Of a stretch of DNA of 33,543 nucleotides, positions 3,485-14,762 are shown piece after piece. The position numbers were made by a program, and so were the translations under genes. The stretch lies in NCBI GenBank assembly GCA_964615145.1, contig CAZTOP010000008.1, positions 19,298 through 52,840 on the forward strand. The letters are read 5' to 3'. The notes under the pieces were generated by a model. It was not told where the DNA came from and did not search any database. It was given only the letters and a program-made list of their open reading frames with translations. The first letter of the stretch is position 1. Every line of letters starts with the position of its first letter. Source of the DNA: an uncultured Chitinophagaceae bacterium. GTDB lineage: Bacteria > Bacteroidota > Bacteroidia > Chitinophagales > Chitinophagaceae.

Positions 3485-4114
3485 CTAATTGCTTACGTAT
3501 TTAGTTATTGGTGCAGCCCACACTAAATCTTCATTATCTCTGCCTTTATGAGCAGCACTAAACACATAAGCCACACCCGCAGGCAAACCTTTAATAACAA
3601 CACTATGCCCATTCACTGGTTTCAATGTCCACAAGTTAATATCACTTGAAGCATTGGTAGCTGGTGTGTAAGCAAACACAGTACCGTGATCGGTTACTGG
3701 CGACTTATCTACCGACACATTCATACTGCCATTATTGCCATTTTCGACCCTAAGGTTAGCAGGTATAGGTTGTGGCAAATACTTGGGCTGCTCCGACAAA
3801 GGAATGCCACTACTTTGCAGCTTAGCCAAATCTCCATCTGCCTGTTGGTTAACCACTACAGCTACTGCACCAAAACTGTTGAGCAGGGTTTCCCTTGCAG
3901 CATTTTTAGCAGTTACTGCAGCTTTGCCACCAGTAGCTAAAGCAGCTAGACTATCGTGATAGGCATTGCTATCATCTTCAAAGTCTTTGAGTTGATCATC
4001 AACAAAAGTGAAGTTGGCATTGCCCTTTAAACCAGTTACAGCAGCTGCTGCTGCAACATCCAAATCAGCGTCTGTTTTATCGCTGAAATCCGTAATAACT
4101 TTGTACTTACGCAT
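3485..4114 (-). CDS. Hypothetical Ala/Gly/Val-rich protein. It is locally GC-rich and may be a secreted or structural beta-rich domain.
   Basis: 209-aa ORF. It has runs of AAAAAV and GGKAAVTAKNAARE. Its GC content is clearly higher than that of all neighbouring genes. Confidence 0.55.
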   Translation of the reverse strand: MRKYKVITDFSDKTDADLDVAAAAAVTGLKGNANFTFVDDQLKDFEDDSNAYHDSLAALATGGKAAVTAKNAARETLLNSFGAVAVVVNQQADGDLAKLQSSGIPLSEQPKYLPQPIPANLRVENGNNGSMNVSVDKSPVTDHGTVFAYTPATNASSDINLWTLKPVNGHSVVIKGLPAGVAYVFSAAHKGRDNEDLVWAAPITKYVSN

Positions 4115-4295
4115 AAAAATTGTTTTAAAAATGAATTAATTAAAATACCAACCTAAAGCTCTTAAAACATTTTTAAATTGCTATATAACAAAATGTTAAA
4201 AATCAATACATACTATTAAAATAATGGTACTTTTTATAAAATTTAACAGAATTTTTACAGTTTTACTTACAACAGATACTTAATAAGTTATAAGG

Positions 4296-4556
4296 GATAG
4301 CAAAAAAGTTGTAACCAAAATATTTTCCGCTACAGCGGAAATGAAAAAAGTTATAGCCGAAATAAAATCTGCTATAACCGAAAGCAAAAAAGTTATAGGG
4401 GTAATGATTTCCGCTATAGCGGAAATTGAAAAAGGGATAGCAGAATGGGAATTTGGTGTAAGGGAAAGGGGAAAAGGGATAGAAGAAATGAAATCTGTTA
4501 TAGGGGAAAGGGAAAAAGTTGTAAGGGAAAGAGAAAGAGTTATATAGGATAGAACT
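4296..4556. repeat. Array of about 12-13 tandem direct repeats with a 21-bp period and GYTATAGSS/GGGATAGMA palindromic cores
   Basis: Units read off directly: gttgtaacc..., gctacagcg..., gttatagcc..., gctataacc..., gttataggg..., gctatagcg..., gggatagca..., ggtgtaagg..., gggatagaa..., gttataggg..., gttgtaagg..., gttatatagg. The segment ttccgctatagcggaa is a perfect 16-bp palindrome. One frame reads as a heptad-repeat 68-aa ORF (4341..4547). Confidence 0.85.
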
Positions 4557-4624
4557 TTGCAGGCTATGAATTGTAAATACTAGATATAGAAAAACAAAAA
4601 AGTACTAACAAAATTTGTTCAAAT

Positions 4625-4632
4625 TAATTTTG
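4625..4632 (+). promoter_or_regulatory. Candidate Bacteroidetes sigma-A -7 element (TAATTTTG) upstream of the methyltransferase gene. It is followed by direct repeats ttgtccgt/gtccg.
   Basis: TAnnTTTG octamer 39 bp upstream of the ATG at 4671. No clean -33 TTTG was found at canonical spacing. Confidence 0.3.
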
Positions 4633-4670
4633 TCCGTAAGTTTGTCCGTGTCCGCAAAAAAGTACGTAAA

Positions 4671-6896
4671 ATGATTAAAGTAAGATTCTATCTCGACAAA
4701 GCAGATAAAAATAGTTTTTCTCCTATACATCTTCGTGTAACCAAAAATGGTGTGCAAATCAAAGTCGCAACAGGTGAGAAAATAAAAAAGAAAGACTGGG
4801 ACAACACAAATCAATTGGTTAAAGACACAGAGTATAAGCATATATCAATCAATAAGTTTCTCAATTTTTTAAAATCAGAAACTGAGAAGTACATATCATC
4901 AACACCGCATACAAAACATACTGACAAAAAAATAAAAGACAAAATTCAAGAGTTAGTGAACAGTAGAAAAGCAAATACGGATGTTCAAATAGTATGTGAA
5001 GATGGAGCGAAATATGAAACAAAACAATCAATAACATTCGTTGACTTATTTGCAGGTGCAGGTGGATTTAGCGAAGGTTTTTTGCAAGCAGAAACAGATA
5101 TTCGATATTACGATTTTTTGCTAGGAAGCGATATCAATGAAAATTGTGAGCTAACTCACCTTGCACGTTATAATTATCAATTAGGACTTGATGCAGCATT
5201 TATAAGACAAGATATTACAGAACCTGATTTCTTGGATAATTTATTGAAAAAGATTAACTGCAAACAAGTTGATGTTGTCTGTGGAGGACCACCCTGCCAA
5301 AGTTTTAGTTTGGCAGGAAGAAGAAAGAAGTTTGATAAGAAAGATGATTTATTCGCACACTACCTAAAAGTAATTAGGCAGTTAAGACCTAAATATTTTG
5401 TAATGGAAAATGTGAAAGGAATTCTTACCAAAGAAGATGGCAAGATTAAAGAAATGATTTTGCAAGAAATTAGGTCAATAGTTGATTTAAAGGAATTTCA
5501 TCAGCTAATAACATTTGTTGCTCAACTAAAAAAGGTTGAGAAAAAACAACCTTTCATTTTAGATTGTTATACACTAAGATTACAATTTGAAACAGCAACA
5601 GAGAAACAACTCGAAAACTCCAGAGAGACTTATATACAGATTCTTGAAAACAAGTTTAGACTTTTAACGCCAAAAATCGTTGATTACAAAACAAGCAAAA
5701 CAGATAAGAATATAAGTACGATTCGACACGGATTTAATTTGCTTAAACGCAGCAAGGAATTGGCTTACATAAGAAAAAAAGTCATTCTTGAAAAGTCATT
5801 TTGTGATTTAGATAATGATTTTTTTACAGATAGCTTCGATGGATTTTTAACTTCAATAGAAAGTGAATCTATTATTGAAACTATTCATAATGCTTTTACA
5901 AACTTAAAGCCATCAGAAGACTATATTGCTGAAATAAATGACATAATTAAATCACTTGAAATTTATAATTACTCTTTTGATGAGTGTGTGCAAGGGCTAA
6001 AAACATTTGTTGAAAAGGCTAATAGATCAAATGAGTTTAATGAAATATTATCGCATATTAGATTATATAATATTGAACAACCTTTTGTTGCTCTTGCATC
6101 TAACTATGGTGTGCCACAAAATAGAGAAAGAGTTCTATTTATTGGTTGTCGAAAAGACCAAAAACTAATTACTGATGTACCACCTACAGTTACAGACAGA
6201 GAAAAGGTAACAGTTTTTGAAGCCTTATATGATTTGGATTTTGTTGGAAACGATGAAGAAAAGTATCATTACGAGAAAATAGATTTAAAAGCCAAATACA
6301 ATGGTTCAACAGAAAAGATGAAAGCCTTAATACAGAAAAGAAATATTGATGGAAAACCGAATAATAGTAAAGGTTTAACTTATGCAGACTGGAGCAAAAA
6401 AGGAAGATTAAATGAAAGATTTGCAAATGCAAAGAACCCCTTTTATGTAAGGAATTTTGAAGATTTAGAAAATAACCTTTCACACATTGTTGCTCCATTA
6501 CACAATCATAAAACAAGTAAACAAAACGACGATGTTGTAAAACGTTTAAATGTCATTTTAAATACTGGTGATTATGATTTAGCAAAAAAAGAATTGAAAG
6601 CAATCGGTTTAGATTCAGAAAAAAGAAGTTACAATGTATTAAAAGCAGATTCGCAAAGCCCAACAGTAATGACAATTCCAGATGATTATATTCACTTTTC
6701 AAGTCCAAGGGCTTTAACAGTTAGAGAAATGGCAAGATTGCAGTCATTTGATGATTCATTTGTATTTCAAGGTAAACGCTCAACTGGTGGCAATAAACGT
6801 AAATTTGAAGTACCGCAATTTACATTGGTTGGTAATGCTGTTCCTCCCTTAATGGCAAGGGCTGTGGCACTAGAAATATTAAAAAATATAGATTAG
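4671..6896 (+). CDS. DNA (cytosine-5)-methyltransferase. It has an N-terminal integrase-type Arm DNA-binding domain and a long insertion between motifs VI and VIII.
   Basis: Motif I FVDLFAGAGGFSEGF (aa 122-135), motif IV GGPPCQSFS (aa 205-213), motif VI FVMENVKG (aa 243-250), motif VIII QNRERVLFIG (aa 483-492), motif X LVGNAVPPLMA near the C-terminus. The N-terminal 55 aa (VRFYLDKADKNSFSPIHLRVTKNGVQIKVATGEKIKKKDWDNTNQLVK) match the Arm-DBD pattern of Bacteroidetes tyrosine integrases. Confidence 0.9.
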   Translation: MIKVRFYLDKADKNSFSPIHLRVTKNGVQIKVATGEKIKKKDWDNTNQLVKDTEYKHISINKFLNFLKSETEKYISSTPHTKHTDKKIKDKIQELVNSRKANTDVQIVCEDGAKYETKQSITFVDLFAGAGGFSEGFLQAETDIRYYDFLLGSDINENCELTHLARYNYQLGLDAAFIRQDITEPDFLDNLLKKINCKQVDVVCGGPPCQSFSLAGRRKKFDKKDDLFAHYLKVIRQLRPKYFVMENVKGILTKEDGKIKEMILQEIRSIVDLKEFHQLITFVAQLKKVEKKQPFILDCYTLRLQFETATEKQLENSRETYIQILENKFRLLTPKIVDYKTSKTDKNISTIRHGFNLLKRSKELAYIRKKVILEKSFCDLDNDFFTDSFDGFLTSIESESIIETIHNAFTNLKPSEDYIAEINDIIKSLEIYNYSFDECVQGLKTFVEKANRSNEFNEILSHIRLYNIEQPFVALASNYGVPQNRERVLFIGCRKDQKLITDVPPTVTDREKVTVFEALYDLDFVGNDEEKYHYEKIDLKAKYNGSTEKMKALIQKRNIDGKPNNSKGLTYADWSKKGRLNERFANAKNPFYVRNFEDLENNLSHIVAPLHNHKTSKQNDDVVKRLNVILNTGDYDLAKKELKAIGLDSEKRSYNVLKADSQSPTVMTIPDDYIHFSSPRALTVREMARLQSFDDSFVFQGKRSTGGNKRKFEVPQFTLVGNAVPPLMARAVALEILKNID

Positions 6897-6902
6897 TTTT
6901 TA

Positions 6903-8087
6903 ATGAGACAGCTATCCGAAATAGAAATCAGTCGTATAAAATTACTAACAGAAAACTCTGTAGAATTAACTTTAATTGAACCAACTGCAACAGGTTTGGA
7001 AAAGTCAATTATGGATGCCACAGGTTCTGTCCGTACTTATTTAAAATCAAAATCTATTCACGACTTTGAAAATCAAAAGCAAGGACAAGAATATAAAATA
7101 CAAATAAAATCGCATTTAATTTTTGAAGATGCACTAGTAAATTCTATCGCTTCATTATATCGCCCTAATACAAAAAAAGGAGACCCAAGAATTTGGTTTA
7201 AAGGATTAACAAGTTTTGCGAAAGCAAATGATATACTAGCAATTGTTGAATATCAAAAAGTGCTGTATGTTTTAAATATTACACAACTTGATTTGAAGAA
7301 ATTATTAGAAGCAAGAATCAACAACCCATTTAGTGAACTTATTAATGAAATCAATCAAAACACGAATGCTATTGCTGAAGAATTATTATTTAAACTAAAA
7401 GAGATTTCTGCAAGAGGCCTCGTTCCTGCTATGTTAAAAGCAGATACAGCAATAGGAAGAACACTCGAAACTTTACTAAACATTGATATTAATTCATCAA
7501 AAAAACCAGATTACAAGGGAATAGAATTAAAATCGTATCGTGATAAAAAGGGTAATAGAAAAAATCTATTCGCTCAAGTACCTGATTGGAATTTAAGTAA
7601 ATTTAGTAGTTCGGCTGAAATATTAAATGCATTTGGTTACAGTAGAGGTGAAGATTTTAAGTTGTATTGCACTGTATCAACTTTAGTGAGAAATTCACAA
7701 GGATTAAAACTAAAATTGAATGCTGAAATAAATCATTTAGTGGAAAATTCCGATAAATCAACAATTGGAGACTTTGTTGTTTGGGGCTTGGAAACTCTGC
7801 ATAAACGACTGCTTGAAAAACATAATGAAACATTTTGGATAGCTGCTGATTCAAAGATTGTTGATGGCAAAGAATATTTTCAGTATAAAAAAGTTGAACA
7901 CACCAAAAAGCCAATTGTTTCTCAGTTTGATATTCTATTGGAACAAGGAATTATTACATTAGATCACTTAATAAAAAGGAAACCGAGTGGAAGTGTTGTA
8001 GAGAAAGGACCACTTTTTAAAATAAAACCAAATGCTCTGGATTTATTATTTCCTCCTAGTCAATCATATTCATTAATTCAAAAATAA
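6903..8087 (+). CDS. Putative Type II restriction endonuclease (PD-(D/E)xK), cognate to the upstream methyltransferase
   Basis: It starts 6 bp after the methyltransferase stop on the same strand. It has a 'GRTLETLL...KKPDYKGIELKSYRD' segment (aa 185-213) that fits a G-x-x-L-E ... PD-x4-E-x-K nuclease core of the kind seen in MutH/Sau3AI-like and EcoRII/NgoMIV-like enzymes. This resemblance is from memory and unverified. The N-terminal roughly 130 aa could be a separate DNA-recognition domain. Confidence 0.5.
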   Translation: MRQLSEIEISRIKLLTENSVELTLIEPTATGLEKSIMDATGSVRTYLKSKSIHDFENQKQGQEYKIQIKSHLIFEDALVNSIASLYRPNTKKGDPRIWFKGLTSFAKANDILAIVEYQKVLYVLNITQLDLKKLLEARINNPFSELINEINQNTNAIAEELLFKLKEISARGLVPAMLKADTAIGRTLETLLNIDINSSKKPDYKGIELKSYRDKKGNRKNLFAQVPDWNLSKFSSSAEILNAFGYSRGEDFKLYCTVSTLVRNSQGLKLKLNAEINHLVENSDKSTIGDFVVWGLETLHKRLLEKHNETFWIAADSKIVDGKEYFQYKKVEHTKKPIVSQFDILLEQGIITLDHLIKRKPSGSVVEKGPLFKIKPNALDLLFPPSQSYSLIQK

Positions 8088-8099
8088 AACTAAAACAAA

Positions 8100-8339
8100 A
8101 TGACACAGTTTAACTCACAAGTAAGCAGCCTTTCACCCAATGGTTCATTTGTTTTATCTCAATCAGATAATCTTGTTTGTAGTGTTGAAAGAAGTAGTGA
8201 TGGCAAAAAACTTCGTTTTGTAAGAACCTTTGCCAATGGCAGTTTTGTAGTGGTTAAAGAAACAGATTACACATTGTATCATTACATTAAACCGAATGAA
8301 CTAAATAGTATTAAAAATACTAAGGCTGTGTTTAGATAA
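8100..8339 (+). CDS. Small hypothetical protein (79 aa), immediately after the R-M pair
   Basis: ATG ORF 12 bp after the endonuclease stop. No motif recognised. Confidence 0.35.
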   Translation: MTQFNSQVSSLSPNGSFVLSQSDNLVCSVERSSDGKKLRFVRTFANGSFVVVKETDYTLYHYIKPNELNSIKNTKAVFR

Positions 8340-8486
8340 TACTTGATTGTATACTTACTACTTTTTAAAATTCCATACTAAGCCCAAAAAGATTTTTGAA
8401 CCCTTCAAGGTCTATTGCATTAACTTGTTAGACACTACTAAAAAATATATAAAATTAAAAAAAACTTCGAGGCATCATTTCCACCA

Positions 8487-9032
8487 ATGAAAATAACTAT
8501 TCGTAACCTGCTCCCGGTTCTTATTCTTATACTTGGCTTTTTTGCTATTAAAAAAGAGTTCCGTGCAACTGATACTGGTTTGTTTTACCAACTTAACTAT
8601 ATACCTTTTGGTCTGTTGATTCTTTTTACACTTATTGCAATCTCTTTAGATAAGCTTTTTTATAAAGCTTATAGAACCAAAAAACAATTTATTACTTCTA
8701 CCATTGGCATTTTGTTGTGTTGTATTGTTGTTTATAAAATTTACCAAAGGCATACAATAGATAAGTCAAATACCTTGTACACTTTCTCAACTAAAACTAC
8801 ATTAAATGAATACTGGGAAATACAATTAAAAGAAAATGAGAAGATGGTACTTGCCAATATAGATATGTTAGGTCAAACACTTTACTATGGCAAGTACACC
8901 CAAAAAGGAGATACGATTACCCTAACCGATATAATGAAAAACCGATACCTGAAACAAACACCTGTTACAGGTATCATCCATCAAAATAAAATTTACTTTA
9001 AAGGCTTAGATACTTTGGGTTTAGTTCAATAA
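8487..9032 (+). CDS. Hypothetical membrane protein (3 TM helices, N-terminal)
   Basis: The N-terminal half is hydrophobic (LLPVLILILGFFAI, FGLLILFTLIAISL, IGILLCCIVVYKI) and the C-terminal half is soluble. Confidence 0.5.
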   Translation: MKITIRNLLPVLILILGFFAIKKEFRATDTGLFYQLNYIPFGLLILFTLIAISLDKLFYKAYRTKKQFITSTIGILLCCIVVYKIYQRHTIDKSNTLYTFSTKTTLNEYWEIQLKENEKMVLANIDMLGQTLYYGKYTQKGDTITLTDIMKNRYLKQTPVTGIIHQNKIYFKGLDTLGLVQ

Positions 9033-9102
9033 TATTATCATTGTAATTAAAAATACCTTTAATATTTTTGAGACGCAACTGTACTAATTTTTTTTATATA
9101 TC

Positions 9103-9248
9103 GTCCCTATGGGACTTTTGCTAGTTTTTGATGTGATGGCTAACCATATTTTATGCCTACGGCATAGTGCAACTTAAAACCAATAGCTCCACTAGGAGCA
9201 AAATATTGGTAGAAAGAAATAGCATTAGGTATTAGAGTTCCGTAGGAA
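9103..9248. repeat. Cluster of four GC-clamped mini-hairpins (5-bp stems, 3-4 nt loops) in a 318-bp intergenic gap
   Basis: gtcccTATgggac (9103-9115), atgccTACggcat (9154-9166), gctccACTAggagc (9186-9199), gttccGTAggaac (9236-9248). Confidence 0.45.
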
Positions 9249-9350
9249 CGAGATATTATTTAGCTTTTATCATATTTTAAATAGCGGTGTTTATAAACCC
9301 TAATAGGCAGGCATTGGTATAAAAAATTTTATAATAAATATAAATACACT

Positions 9351-9638
9351 ATGGCATTAATATTTACAGGTTCAACCGAATGTGCTATTTGTAAAAAGGT
9401 GTTGCAAGATGGAGAGGCTATAGCTACATTGCCTGCTATTGCTAATACACAGCATCCGTTGTATTCTTTTTTTGATGGTGGTTTCCATCAATCCTGCTTC
9501 GATAACTGGGAGCATAAAGCAACCATTCAACAAATTATTGAAGAGGAAAGAGCAGCCTATGAAAATTCAGATTACTACAAAGAAATGGTTGCTAAGTATG
9601 GTGAGCCAAAATATAAAAATACAACACCAGATAAATAG
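9351..9638 (+). CDS. Small hypothetical Cys/His-containing protein (possible metal-binding)
   Basis: 95-aa ORF with CAICKK...HQSCFDNWEH. No catalytic motif. Confidence 0.45.
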   Translation: MALIFTGSTECAICKKVLQDGEAIATLPAIANTQHPLYSFFDGGFHQSCFDNWEHKATIQQIIEEERAAYENSDYYKEMVAKYGEPKYKNTTPDK

Positions 9639-10109: not shown

Positions 10110-10976
10110 ATGGAATTAGTTATCAAAAATCTTAGCAAAACATACAGCAATGGGGTTAAGGCTTTAAATAATATTAACTTAAATATTAGTAAAGGAATGT
10201 TTGGTTTGCTTGGTCCTAATGGTGCTGGTAAAAGTACTTTAATGAGAACTATTGCAGCTTTGCAAAATGCAGATAGTGGCAGTATTTTTTTAGGAGATAT
10301 TGATGTAATAAATCAAAAAAATGAACTAAGAAAAGTGTTGGGTTATTTGCCTCAGGATTTTGGTTTTTATCCAAAAGTTTCGGCACTTGACCTGTTAAAT
10401 CATTTTGCAGTGCTAAAAGGTATCAGTAATAAAACAGAACGTAAACAAATGGTAGATGCCTTATTACTGCAAACTAATTTGTATGAAGTAAGAAAAAGAA
10501 ACGTGAGTGATTACAGTGGTGGTATGCGTCAGCGTTTTGGTATTGCACAGGCTTTATTGGGTAATCCTAAACTGATTATTGTGGATGAACCCACAGCAGG
10601 ATTAGACCCACAAGAAAGAAACAGGTTTCATAATATTTTAAGCGAAATTGGTGAACAGGTAATTGTAATTCTATCTACCCATATTGTAGATGATGTTAAA
10701 ACATTGTGTAACCAAATGGTGGTAATGAACAGAGGTACTATTTTACTGGAAGGCACACCAAAACAAGCAGTGGAAGCCATACAGGGCAAAATATGGACAG
10801 CATCTATCAACAAAGAAGATTTAACCAGTTACAAAAAACAGTTCAACGTAATTTCTCAATACATTAACGAAGGGAAAATGACGGTTCACGTTTTTGCCAA
10901 CTCACAACCATCGGCCGAGTTTGTTGCTACTGAAGCAGACTTAGAAGATGTTTACTTTTCGCATATTGGAAAGTAA
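10110..10976 (+). CDS. ABC transporter ATP-binding protein
   Basis: Walker A GPNGAGKST, signature SGGMRQR, Walker B LIIVDEPTAGLD, H-loop STH. Confidence 0.93.
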   Translation: MELVIKNLSKTYSNGVKALNNINLNISKGMFGLLGPNGAGKSTLMRTIAALQNADSGSIFLGDIDVINQKNELRKVLGYLPQDFGFYPKVSALDLLNHFAVLKGISNKTERKQMVDALLLQTNLYEVRKRNVSDYSGGMRQRFGIAQALLGNPKLIIVDEPTAGLDPQERNRFHNILSEIGEQVIVILSTHIVDDVKTLCNQMVVMNRGTILLEGTPKQAVEAIQGKIWTASINKEDLTSYKKQFNVISQYINEGKMTVHVFANSQPSAEFVATEADLEDVYFSHIGK

Positions 10977-11075: not shown

Positions 11076-14000
11076 ATGTTTAAAGAGATATTTTTATTTG
11101 AATTAAAACAAGGCTTAAAAAAGCCCTCTACCTATATATACTTTAGTATTTTATTTTTATTATCAATGATGCTTGGTTTAGGTGGTACAGGTGCATTGTT
11201 TACTACCAGAAATGATAGTAATCTTATTATGAATTCGGCATCGGTAATATCTGGTATTTTATTAGTAAGCAGCAGTTCTATATTTAGTTTAATGACTAGT
11301 GTTTTATTGATATCTATCATGGCAAATGCTATACAAAAAGATTATGAGTATAATACACATCCACTTTTTTTTACCAAGCCTATTACTAAATCAAGTTATT
11401 TTTTTGGACGATTTTTAAGTGTGTTTCTTTTAGCAGTATTTGTATTTAGTGGCTTACTAATTGGATATTATTTAGGCATTATACACGCTGCGGGTACAAG
11501 CTATGTAGGAGCGTTTGAGTTTATTAATTTTATACAACCTTTCTTAATTTTTACCTTACCCAATGTATTTTTATTTGGCGTTATTTTCTTTTCGCTTACT
11601 ACTTTTTTGCGTAATACTATGATGGCTTATATAGTAGCCATTATTTTAATGGTATTGCAAATAGCTACTGGTACTATAAGCTCAGATATTGATAATAAAA
11701 TGCTGGTAGCTGTATTAGAACCAACTGGCAGCAAGGCTTTGGGCTTAATAACAGAATACTGGAGCCCTGCCGAAAGAAATGCACGGCTCATTCCACTATC
11801 GGGTGCTTTGTTATACAACAGACTACTTTGGTTGGGGATTGCATTGCTTACAACTGCCATTAGTTATTATGGCTTCAATTTTTCGCAATTTTTACAACCT
11901 TTTCAGTTATTTAAAAGAAAAAAAGCAGAGGAACAACCCTCGCAAGTGTTATTAAATAGCTTAAGTGAATTGCCAACAGTGCATCAAGATTTTAGTGTCA
12001 AAAATGCTTTACAACAAGCTTGGTATTTAGGTTGTTTTGAGTTTAAAAAATTAAATCGTACTGTATTTTTTATAGTAATGTGCTTGTTAAGTATTGGCAC
12101 TATGCTTTTAATTGTAAAGTATATGGATGCTATGTACGATTCGCCAACTTATATGGTTACATATAAAGTACTGGAAGAGGCAGTGGGCTCTTTGGATTTA
12201 TATGCTATGATTTTTATAATTTTTTACAGTGGCACCATTATTTGGCGAGATAGAGAAACTAAAATGGTAGAACTGGTTGGAGCCACTCCTATTAGTAACG
12301 GTTCATTGTTTTTATCAAAATGGATTGGTTTAGAGCTTGGATTTATTTTGCTTTCGGTTATAGGTGCTTTTTGTGGTATATTGATTCAATTATATAATGG
12401 TTTTTATCATATCGATTTTTCACAATATCTGGTTTTTATATTAAAAGGTATTGCATCGAGTAGTGTACTGATTACATTTTGTCTTGCAGTACAGGTGTAT
12501 TCTCCTAACAAGTTTTTAGGTTTCTTTTTTGTGCTGATTCCAATTGTAATTATGCCCATAATATTCAGTTTACTGGAATGGGATGTTTTTTTATTAGACT
12601 TTAATAGCAGTGGCGATTCAAGCGAGTATTCTGATATGAACGGTTATGGAACTACCTTTATTGAATGGCCTGTTTTTAGAACTTACTGGACAAGTATTGC
12701 CGTTTTTCTGGCTATGTTAGCCATTTTGGTTTATGCAAGAGGAAAGGAAAAATCGCTTGTTGGCAGATTTAGATTATCGAAATACTTTTTTGGAGCAAAG
12801 TATATGCTTTATATGCTTGCCAGCTTTATCGTTATTGCAGTTTTAGGGTATTACATTTATTATGAAAAAAGAATTGTAAAAACTCATATTTCAGCAAAAA
12901 CAGCAGAAAAAAACAGGGCTGAATTTGAAAAAAAATATAAAAAATACGAAACCTTATTACAACCAAGAATTGTAGCCACAGTAGTAAACCTTGATATGTT
13001 TACCAAAACAAAACAACTACATGTTGCTGGTGTTTACACTTTGGTTAATAAGCATGCTGTTGCCATTGATAGCTTGTATATTGATTATATAGGTGGTAAA
13101 AAAAGTTCTTACAATTTTTCTAAACTTAATCCAACTGTGGGTTATAAAGAGGTATTGAAAGATGAGGAAAATGGCATTAAAATTTTAAAACTTGAGCATC
13201 CTTTACAACCCAATGACTCTATTATTTTCGAATTTGATGTTTGGTATAAACCGCTTAGTTATTTCGATAAAGTAAATTCACCCATTCAAGCTAATGGCAC
13301 ATTCATTAACAATGAATTTTTCCCAAGTTTTGGATATAATGAAGGAGATGAGCTCAGCGAAAACAGGGCAAGAAAAGAATATAACCTGAAGCCAAAGCCA
13401 CGAATGGCAAAGGTTACAGACTCGGCAGCAAGAATGAACAACTACATTTCAAGCGATGCTGACTGGATAAGATTTGAAACAACGGTTAGTACAGATGAAG
13501 GACAAATTGCAATAGCACCTGGTTATTTGCAAAAAGAGTGGATAAAAGATGGCAGACATTATTACAGTTATAAAATGGATAGCCCAATTCTTAATTTCTA
13601 TTCTTTTTTAAGTGCAGCCTACCAAGTAAAAAAAGATAGCTGGAAGGGAATTAGTTTAGAAATTTATTATAACAAGGGTCACGAGTATAATATAGATAGA
13701 ATGATGAAAGGAATGAAAAAGGCTTTGGAATATTATACCACCAATTTTGGTCCTTATCAGCATCGACAAGTAAGAATTATTGAATTTCCAAGGTATCAAT
13801 CATTTGCTCAATCATTCCCTAATACCATTCCTTTCTCTGAATCTATAGGTTTTATCACAAAAGTTGATGATGAAGATCCATTAAGTATAGATGTTCCGTT
13901 TTATGTTACAGCACACGAGGTAGCTCATCAATGGTGGGCACATCAAGTAATTGGTGGCAATGTACAAGGTAGTGTTTTAATGAGTGAAACCATGAGTCAG

Positions 14001-14762
14001 TACAGTGCTTTGATGGTAATGGAAAAAGAGTATGGAAAGGATGCCATGAAGAAGTTCCTGAAATACGAAATGGACAAATATTTAAAAGGAAGAACTTTTG
14101 AAAGTAAAAATGAAATGCCACTGATGCTGGCAGAAAATCAACAATATATTCATTACAATAAAGGTAGTGTGGTAATGTATGCACTAAAAGATTATTTAGG
14201 GGAAGCAACCCTGAATAATGCTATTAAAGAATATTTAAACAAAACTAAATTTACTGGACCTGTTTATACTAATTCAATTGAGTTTGTTAATTACATAAAA
14301 AAAGCAACACCCGACAGTTTACAATATTTAGTAACAGATTTATTTGAGAAGATTACTTTATACGAAAACTATGTTAAAAAACTAGACTATAAGAAAATTA
14401 GTGATAAAGAATATAAGGTAAGTATAACAGTGGGTTGTGCTAAGTTCTATGCAGACAGCACTGGCAATTTAACCAAAGCTACAGTGAATGACTATGTTGA
14501 TATTGGTATATTCACAATGCAAAAAATTAAAAATAAAGACATAGAGAAACCATTACTATTTACCAGAGTAAAAATGAATGCACCAGAAAAAACATTTGAG
14601 TTTACTGTAACTGAAAAGCCTGTATCTGCTGGCATTGACCCATACTTAAAGTTAATTGACAGAACACCTAAAAACAATGTTTGCAAGTTTGGAGAAACGC
14701 CTTCAAAACCTAATCTTGATTTAAATGGGAAAGATCTTAGTATTATTATTGGAGGAGAATAA
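11076..14762 (+). CDS. ABC-2 family permease fused to an M1-family (aminopeptidase N-like) zinc metallopeptidase domain
   Basis: The N-terminal roughly 600 aa are polytopic membrane (more than 10 TM helices). The C-terminal domain has HEVAHQWWAH...E (HExxH-x19-E zinc site). The canonical GAMEN exopeptidase motif is not visible upstream of HExxH. Confidence 0.88.
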   Translation: MFKEIFLFELKQGLKKPSTYIYFSILFLLSMMLGLGGTGALFTTRNDSNLIMNSASVISGILLVSSSSIFSLMTSVLLISIMANAIQKDYEYNTHPLFFTKPITKSSYFFGRFLSVFLLAVFVFSGLLIGYYLGIIHAAGTSYVGAFEFINFIQPFLIFTLPNVFLFGVIFFSLTTFLRNTMMAYIVAIILMVLQIATGTISSDIDNKMLVAVLEPTGSKALGLITEYWSPAERNARLIPLSGALLYNRLLWLGIALLTTAISYYGFNFSQFLQPFQLFKRKKAEEQPSQVLLNSLSELPTVHQDFSVKNALQQAWYLGCFEFKKLNRTVFFIVMCLLSIGTMLLIVKYMDAMYDSPTYMVTYKVLEEAVGSLDLYAMIFIIFYSGTIIWRDRETKMVELVGATPISNGSLFLSKWIGLELGFILLSVIGAFCGILIQLYNGFYHIDFSQYLVFILKGIASSSVLITFCLAVQVYSPNKFLGFFFVLIPIVIMPIIFSLLEWDVFLLDFNSSGDSSEYSDMNGYGTTFIEWPVFRTYWTSIAVFLAMLAILVYARGKEKSLVGRFRLSKYFFGAKYMLYMLASFIVIAVLGYYIYYEKRIVKTHISAKTAEKNRAEFEKKYKKYETLLQPRIVATVVNLDMFTKTKQLHVAGVYTLVNKHAVAIDSLYIDYIGGKKSSYNFSKLNPTVGYKEVLKDEENGIKILKLEHPLQPNDSIIFEFDVWYKPLSYFDKVNSPIQANGTFINNEFFPSFGYNEGDELSENRARKEYNLKPKPRMAKVTDSAARMNNYISSDADWIRFETTVSTDEGQIAIAPGYLQKEWIKDGRHYYSYKMDSPILNFYSFLSAAYQVKKDSWKGISLEIYYNKGHEYNIDRMMKGMKKALEYYTTNFGPYQHRQVRIIEFPRYQSFAQSFPNTIPFSESIGFITKVDDEDPLSIDVPFYVTAHEVAHQWWAHQVIGGNVQGSVLMSETMSQYSALMVMEKEYGKDAMKKFLKYEMDKYLKGRTFESKNEMPLMLAENQQYIHYNKGSVVMYALKDYLGEATLNNAIKEYLNKTKFTGPVYTNSIEFVNYIKKATPDSLQYLVTDLFEKITLYENYVKKLDYKKISDKEYKVSITVGCAKFYADSTGNLTKATVNDYVDIGIFTMQKIKNKDIEKPLLFTRVKMNAPEKTFEFTVTEKPVSAGIDPYLKLIDRTPKNNVCKFGETPSKPNLDLNGKDLSIIIGGE

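Follow-up and report, generated by a model that had tools for sequence, protein, structure and literature searches.

We analyzed a 33,543-nucleotide stretch of DNA from an uncultured Chitinophagaceae bacterium (GenBank assembly GCA_964615145.1, contig CAZTOP010000008.1, positions 19,298 to 52,840; hereafter the window), in which an earlier note, made from the sequence alone, had suggested a restriction endonuclease gene downstream of a methyltransferase gene. This gene, which we call R (6903-8087, plus strand, 394 amino acids, ATG to TAA), likely codes for the nuclease component in a compact Type II restriction-modification (R-M) cassette with an upstream C5 methylase, M, and the enzyme appears to be of the two-domain UbaLAI type, joining a B3-type domain to an MvaI/BcnI nuclease domain. 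M occupies 4671-6896 (plus strand, 741 amino acids, stop codon TAG) and a small open reading frame (ORF) of 79 amino acids occupies 8100-8339 (plus strand). The three genes lie head to tail on the same strand, with gaps of 6 bp (TTTTTA) between M and R and 12 bp (AACTAAAACAAA) between R and the small ORF, confirming the coordinates given earlier. From this spacing and the conserved gene order, co-transcription of the cassette is plausible; a sigma-70 promoter scan of 4100-9100 returned 20 promoter-like sites against 24.7 expected (Bacteroidota use other promoters), and a terminator scan of the same interval was uninformative.

The C-terminal part of R (amino acids 164-383, nucleotides 7392-8051, plus strand) was identified as an MvaI/BcnI-type PD-(D/E)XK domain by Pfam, by a family profile run against PDB sequences, and by Foldseek. 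PF15515 (MvaI_BcnI) matches R with an E value of 1e-74 (251.9 bits against a cutoff of 25) over profile positions 3-227 of 227. The single R sequence retrieves MvaI from the PDB sequences at 5e-6, and a profile built from 76 homologs (32 to 59% identity) retrieves MvaI at 1.3e-28, BcnI at 1.6e-15, and MutH at 0.15. An AlphaFold2 model of R computed from the homolog alignment (predicted local distance difference test [pLDDT] score, 94.7; predicted template modeling [pTM] score, 0.89) matches MvaI (2oaa; E = 3.5e-14) and BcnI (2odi; E = 3.5e-13) in Foldseek, each with probability 1.00.

The earlier note had singled out PDYKGIELK as a candidate PD-x4-E-x-K catalytic site preceded by GRTLETLL. Both are present: the former spans amino acids 202-210 (nucleotides 7506-7532; D203, E208, and K210), and the latter starts at amino acid 185; E189 is encoded at nucleotides 7467-7469. 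The active-site residues named in the MvaI paper (E36, D50, E55, and K57) align to R E189, D203, E208, and K210 once an offset of 3 in the PDB chain numbering is allowed for. Conservation of D203, E208, and K210 had been set beforehand as a test that could refute the nuclease assignment; these residues are kept in 74, 76, and 74 of the 76 homologs, respectively, and E189 is kept in 72. By sequence and fold, the C-terminal domain is thus assigned as an MvaI/BcnI (MutH-like) PD-(D/E)XK nuclease with a single predicted active site, and the restriction endonuclease proposed for this position has the expected nuclease fold. The resemblance to a MutH/Sau3AI-like core, which had also been noted, holds at the level of the superfamily core shared with MutH. 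The match of the R profile to MutH over the G-x-x-L-E...ExK core is marginal, as is that of the model in Foldseek (2aoq; E = 0.37, probability 0.28), which indicates a common superfamily core rather than membership in the MutH/Sau3AI family. The companion suggestion of an EcoRII-like nuclease did not hold, as EcoRII-C and PspGI are absent from the profile and fold searches of the C-terminal domain; EcoRII surfaces solely via its N-terminal domain.

M is a C5 DNA cytosine methyltransferase by PF00145 (E = 1.9e-51), TIGR00675 (E = 1.2e-44), and the PADLOC MTase_II profile (E = 1.5e-74), with motifs I, IV, VI, VIII, and X readable in the sequence as FAGAGG, PPCQSFS, ENV, QNRER, and GNAVPP. It carries an N-terminal Arm-type DNA-binding domain (amino acids 9-76, nucleotides 4695-4898; Arm-DNA-bind_5, PF17293, 38.3 bits against a cutoff of 22.6) and, between motifs VI and VIII, an insert of about 200 amino acids (approximately amino acids 272-470, nucleotides 5484-6080) with no family match. 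The insert is kept in the Bacteroidota lineage of 741-amino-acid methylases and is absent from the proteobacterial partners of homologous R genes.

To follow the M-R association across species, we scanned one genome per species, confirmed 572 relatives of R, and studied the 80 best loci (63 to 81% identity, almost all from Bacteroidota). An M homolog lies upstream on the same strand in 71 of the 71 loci with at least 2.4 kb of upstream sequence, directly adjacent in 67. Relatives of R at 80 to 94% identity adjoin the same 741-amino-acid M in unrelated chromosomal neighborhoods. Beyond this lineage we found seven proteobacterial plasmid homologs (41 to 49% identity), one of them in an unannotated record; all six annotated homologs adjoin a C5 methyltransferase, in tandem or divergent orientation, and one also adjoins a Vsr gene. 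This last gene (L099:1257-1700, on Acinetobacter baumannii plasmid pA52-1) stands beside the C5 methylase, consistent with repair of T:G mismatches generated by 5-methylcytosine (5mC). Judged by gene order, M and R are a true R-M pair and a mobile unit. Neither ORF is a chance reading frame, since R matches PF15515 and has more than 5,000 database relatives, and M-R synteny holds throughout the loci that could be assessed. The cassette is an ordinary, widespread bacterial defense unit, very common in Bacteroidota; the R family is already automatically annotated as "MvaI/BcnI family restriction endonuclease," and the two-domain design has a precedent in UbaLAI. The earlier interpretation is supported as essentially right. 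The cassette itself matters little; the newer material lies in the N-terminal domain of R, in the leader that may be read by the Arm-type domain of M, and in a second defense system nested in some relatives.

The N-terminal 130 amino acids of R had been suggested to form a separate DNA-recognition or effector domain. Amino acids 1-160 have no match in Pfam, NCBIfam, or PADLOC; in the model, residues 1 to about 130 form a B3-like pseudobarrel followed by a helical linker (amino acids 131-170; domain and linker together, nucleotides 6903-7412, plus strand), in line with that suggestion. Structure comparison ranks B3 domains above everything else: FUS3 B3 (10.2), the LlaJI.R1 N-terminal domain (8.0), the BfiI recognition domain and VRN1 (7.6 each), EcoRII and RAV1 (7.4 each), UbaLAI-N (7.2), and NgoAVII B3 (6.8), against 3.9 for the best non-B3 match. 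A B3-like fold is therefore well supported for the modeled domain. The family comprises 677 clusters at 50% identity, of which 471 have E values of ≤1e-10; among its best 150 representatives, 77 are proteins of about 370 to 430 amino acids with the domain at the N terminus, and 61 are shorter and probably fragments. Its near-invariant polar residues are T28, K34, D38, R44, H53, Q58, Y86, R87, K91, D94, R96, and W98. Thus a fold and a likely role can be assigned to a domain that lacks a Pfam or NCBIfam model despite hundreds of clusters and several associated defense effectors.

The closest precedent for this architecture is UbaLAI (PDB 5o63), a monomeric Type IIE enzyme of 405 amino acids that cuts CC/WGG and needs two sites; its B3/EcoRII-N-like domain (amino acids 1-164) holds one site and tethers the MvaI-like domain (amino acids 165-405), by which the other site is nicked in both strands (PMC5766183). 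R has the same domain order with similar boundaries, its MvaI-like domain lying at amino acids 164-383. A PADLOC REase_II profile of 405 positions aligns to the C-terminal domain only (profile positions 168-396, R amino acids 155-383). Because the layout matches that of UbaLAI, we propose the same mechanism for R. By this analogy, R would be monomeric. Its B3 domain would dock on one unmethylated site and tether or license the nuclease domain, which would then cut a second site by nicking one strand after the other, as in Type IIE enzymes. C5 methylation by M would block both binding and cleavage by R on host DNA.

Other relatives share parts of this design. MvaI and BcnI (CC/WGG and CC/SGG; PDB 2oa9/2oaa and 2odh/2odi) are single-domain monomeric restriction endonucleases that resemble R in fold and in the catalytic constellation E...PD-x4-E-x-K, and their reader loop H-D-H/R-G has a counterpart in the R family, but they lack an N-terminal domain and are only about 22% identical to R, and the partner of MvaI is an N4-cytosine rather than a C5 methyltransferase. 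EcoRII (Type IIE, CCWGG, with a C5 methyltransferase partner) and the B3 restriction endonucleases BfiI, NgoAVII, and LlaJI.R1 differ from R in their catalytic modules, which are an EcoRII-C/PspGI-type dimer, a phospholipase D (PLD) nuclease, or an ATPase/GTPase.

Several results count against the UbaLAI-type assignment. The B3 assignment comes from one method: Foldseek of the N-terminal domain of the same model against the PDB returned nothing at E values of ≤0.001, a permissive Pfam scan (E ≤ 10) of 45 N-terminal domains gave no accumulation of B3 or EcoRII-N matches, and the R-family profile run against all PDB sequences, 5o63 included, found neither UbaLAI-N nor EcoRII at E values of ≤10. 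The architecture is the same, but homology of the N-terminal domain to UbaLAI-N is unproven. The two-site mechanism is an analogy with UbaLAI. Finally, MvaI tolerates 5mC at the inner cytosine, so protection by a C5 methyltransferase would need a methylation sensitivity unlike that of MvaI.

R could instead be an orthodox single-site Type IIP enzyme resembling MvaI and BcnI, in which the N-terminal domain adds specific or nonspecific DNA affinity or else serves in regulation, in contacts with M, or in some similar way, with no need for two sites. Single-domain MvaI and BcnI are efficient monomers, and the pTM score of the full-length model suggests a fixed arrangement of the two domains rather than a loose tether. 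However, UbaLAI is the only characterized enzyme that combines B3 and MvaI-type domains, and in addition to its need for two sites, its C-terminal domain depends on the N-terminal one. Binding to specific DNA is common to the B3 domains of EcoRII, BfiI, NgoAVII, and LlaJI, and the polar surface residues of the R N-terminal domain are almost invariant over the 677 clusters, arguing for sequence-specific DNA reading. We therefore regard a single-site enzyme as unlikely and favor the UbaLAI-type enzyme.

For the recognition sequence, CCWGG is the leading candidate, with about even chances of being correct. Both characterized relatives, the one closest in the C-terminal domain and the one with the same architecture, cut CCWGG. 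MvaI D207, which reads an inner cytosine, corresponds to R D354 and is conserved in 72 of 76 homologs, and the MvaI reader loop H-D-H-G appears as x-(D/E)-(H/K/R)-G in the R family and as V-E-K-G in R. Among specific 5-mers, CCWGG shows the strongest depletion in the host DNA around the 80 cassettes (778 kb, analyzed with no control genomes free of the system), with 477 occurrences against 701 expected, a ratio of 0.68, and its count is lower than expected in 42 of 45 loci; CCSGG shows no depletion (454 against 456 expected; 24 versus 21 loci). Within 65 cassettes, CCWGG occurs 22 times against 111 expected and CCSGG 17 times against 58, although these expectations come from an overly crude mononucleotide model and the cassettes are not independent sequences.

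Further evidence comes from the proteobacterial homologs. All seven carry exactly one CCTGGAC, in the orientation of M and 62 to 73 nt upstream of its start (L010:3511, L011:4938, L012:4346, L098:3344, L099:3478, L100:3352, and L101:2479); the flanks of this box diverge, and it is present in both gene arrangements. We read it as a probable cognate CCWGG site that overlaps a TGGACw hexamer resembling a −35 element. Placing a cognate site over a promoter −35 element is a known feedback design of R-M systems. For the family as a whole, the box offers an inexpensive way to learn the specificity.

The case for CCWGG is weakened by several observations. The equivalent of MvaI R209, which reads the central T or base, is L, T, or A in the R family. 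The depletion analysis has the limit on controls given above, GGWCC shows the same degree of depletion as CCWGG so that the pooled host analysis does not separate the two, and GATC, GGCC, and CTAG are more depleted still. Aligned with solved methyltransferases and with Escherichia coli Dcm, the classical CCWGG C5 methyltransferase, the target recognition domain of M shows only generic motifs, from which no specificity can be transferred. The Bacteroidota leader and the cassette in the window contain no CCWGG.

As a separate observation, the window shows extreme avoidance of several 4-bp palindromes, with GCGC found 0 times against about 13 expected, CATG 14 against 89, GATC 16 against 70, and GGCC 10 against 34. 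Locus L004 shows the same avoidance, suggesting that R-M systems other than this one exert pressure in the lineage. Motif depletion in the window itself was rejected as a clue to specificity, as GCGC, GATC, CATG, and GGCC dominate it and are not attributable to the M-R system.

Upstream of M lies a conserved leader or promoter of 42 nt (4629-4670, plus strand); homology with all relatives starts at 4611/4629. It contains four direct GTMCG units (4632-4636, 4644-4648, 4650-4654, and 4662-4666, spaced by 12, 6, and 12 nt) that bracket a Bacteroidota-type −7 box, TAnnTTTG (4637-4644), and the only two exact copies of TTTGTCCGT in the window are both found here. Its sequence hardly varies among relatives that are about 75% identical in coding DNA. 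GTCCG-type units number four in 52 of 73 species loci and three in 14, compared with 0.6 GTCCG per kb of flanking DNA, and the proteobacterial systems have neither the Arm domain in their partner methyltransferases nor the GTCCG repeats. We infer that the Arm-type domain of M binds these repeats and autoregulates the operon, with the leader as the candidate operator.

M.SsoII, M.EcoRII, and M.MspI are C5 methyltransferases that regulate themselves and carry a DNA-binding region at the N terminus. The cassette in the window resembles these systems in the extra N-terminal DNA-binding domain on M, in lacking a controller protein (C-protein), and in a conserved repeat that overlaps the promoter. 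It differs from them in that the domain is of the integrase Arm type (PF17293) rather than a helix-turn-helix (HTH) and in that the putative operator consists of four direct GTMCG repeats rather than an inverted repeat. An Arm-type domain acting on a near-invariant GTCCG leader is a testable regulatory hypothesis and, if true, would represent a novel form of autoregulation for R-M cassettes that have no C-protein.

The 79-amino-acid ORF at 8100-8339 had been described as a controller, an accessory protein, or spurious. Compared with the 93%-identity cassette of L004/L005, it shows 15 synonymous and 9 nonsynonymous codon changes, with differences distributed 5/5/18 over the three codon positions (binomial P = 1e-4 for the synonymous excess). 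This coding-type pattern of purifying selection speaks against a spurious ORF, and that candidate was rejected. A homolog of identical length at 62% identity is likewise closely preceded by another gene. The ORF follows R in L001, L004, L005, and L014 and is restricted to this cassette sublineage, with only 6 clusters among 5.8e9 proteins. Homology to L004/L005 stops about 30 nt past its stop codon although the downstream genes differ, so the ORF appears to have moved with the cassette.

Could this ORF work alongside M and R as a third component, that is, a controller, an antitoxin-like inhibitor of R, or a specificity factor? Its 12-bp distance from R on the same strand, its joint inheritance with the cassette in two distinct neighborhoods, and the selection on its sequence all fit such a role, but it is absent from 79 of the 80 species loci with intact M-R, and the system evidently works without it. 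Its rarity among known proteins also counts against a core function. It has no HTH or family match in Pfam, NCBIfam, PADLOC, or PHROGs and lies downstream of R, and C-proteins normally precede R; position, distribution, and the lack of an HTH match in these four libraries rule out a C-protein, and the suggestion of a controller was dropped. We consider a third component quite improbable and interpret the ORF, from its sequence and distribution, as a real but dispensable lineage-specific passenger or accessory rather than a core component.

A further alternative, in which R would not be a classical restriction partner of M but would depend on modification or nick single strands (as in MutH/Vsr-like repair or Type IIM/IV enzymes), acting on methylated or mismatched DNA that a C5 methylase gives rise to, might draw on the MutH-like fold, on nicking of C5-methylated BcnI sites by MvaI (PMC3001055), on the homolog whose locus also encodes Vsr, and on the presence of the same N-terminal domain on a protein with a Type IV modification-dependent restriction endonuclease segment (P0264), but we judge it very improbable, as a modification-dependent nuclease encoded 6 bp downstream of its own methylase, with the pairing kept in all 71 loci, would be self-toxic, all four residues for full cleavage are retained, the family annotation and nearest solved relatives are true restriction endonucleases, and the similarity to MutH is marginal.

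Returning to R as a UbaLAI-type enzyme, we found the same B3-like N-terminal domain at the head of several other proteins: P0196, P0227 (DruF-like), P0262 (SspF-like), P0251 (DndH/HerA-like ATPase), and P0264 (Type IV restriction endonuclease-like). The B3-DruF and B3-ATPase genes (loci L015 and L016, the only two such loci that were readable) adjoin C5 methyltransferases that have variable-region motifs and a TGG..R..EVPQ(F/Y)T insertion in common with M of the window.

In UKL13-3 and five other species (6 of the 80 loci), M and R are separated by a Dazbog pair (DzbA, E = 4e-103; DzbB, E = 5e-47). The nested pairs are at L002:5779-8004 (equivalent to L021:7779-10001), L026, L044, L062, L068, and L083, with a remnant at L094:9481-10001. 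Dazbog divergence parallels R divergence, and L094 holds a deletion remnant; M-DzbA-DzbB-R is thus an old four-gene form of the operon and not a one-off insertion. Dazbog has been described in reviews as sensing modified DNA or phage methylases, and these recurrent operons may help explain its coupling to methylation.

Tentatively, and with our own judgment leaning somewhat against it, these elements could be joined in one scheme. The N-terminal domain would represent a large, unannotated, highly divergent B3-like family of "unmethylated-site readers" that travels with one C5 methyltransferase subfamily and is joined to at least five effectors (MvaI-like nuclease, DruF, SspF-like, DndH/HerA-like, and Type IV restriction endonuclease-like). 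The Arm-type domain, an added acquisition of Bacteroidota M, would bind the fourfold GTCCG repeat over its own promoter, and the Dazbog pair inside about 8% of operons would provide a second line against phage methylases.

Relatives show DNA homology only to 4611/4629-8090 of the window. Where the cassette lacks the small ORF, blastn homology stops at about 8090; in the sublineage that carries it, the right edge (8340-8373, no strand assigned) is where blastn homology to L004/L005 stops, at 8373, and the genomic neighborhood of L004/L005 differs from that of the window.

Just left of the cassette, 4289-4544 consists of tandem repeats with a period of 42/84 nt in about two to three copies, with GC-rich hairpins (TTTCCGCTATAGCGGAAA), and a 68-amino-acid "ORF" at 4341-4547 is most likely an artifact of these repeats. 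To the right, two ORFs of 181 and 95 amino acids (8487-9638) lie between the cassette and an ATP-binding cassette (ABC) transporter gene and are missing in the close relative L014/L013; there the ABC gene follows the 79-amino-acid ORF almost directly (L014:1585-1829), which corresponds to an insertion or deletion of about 1.5 kb beside the cassette relative to the window. Farther downstream, an ABC ATPase gene (10110-10976) lies upstream of a gene for a 1,228-amino-acid protein (11076-14762) with ABC-2-type membrane segments and a Peptidase_M1 domain, which is unrelated to the R-M system.

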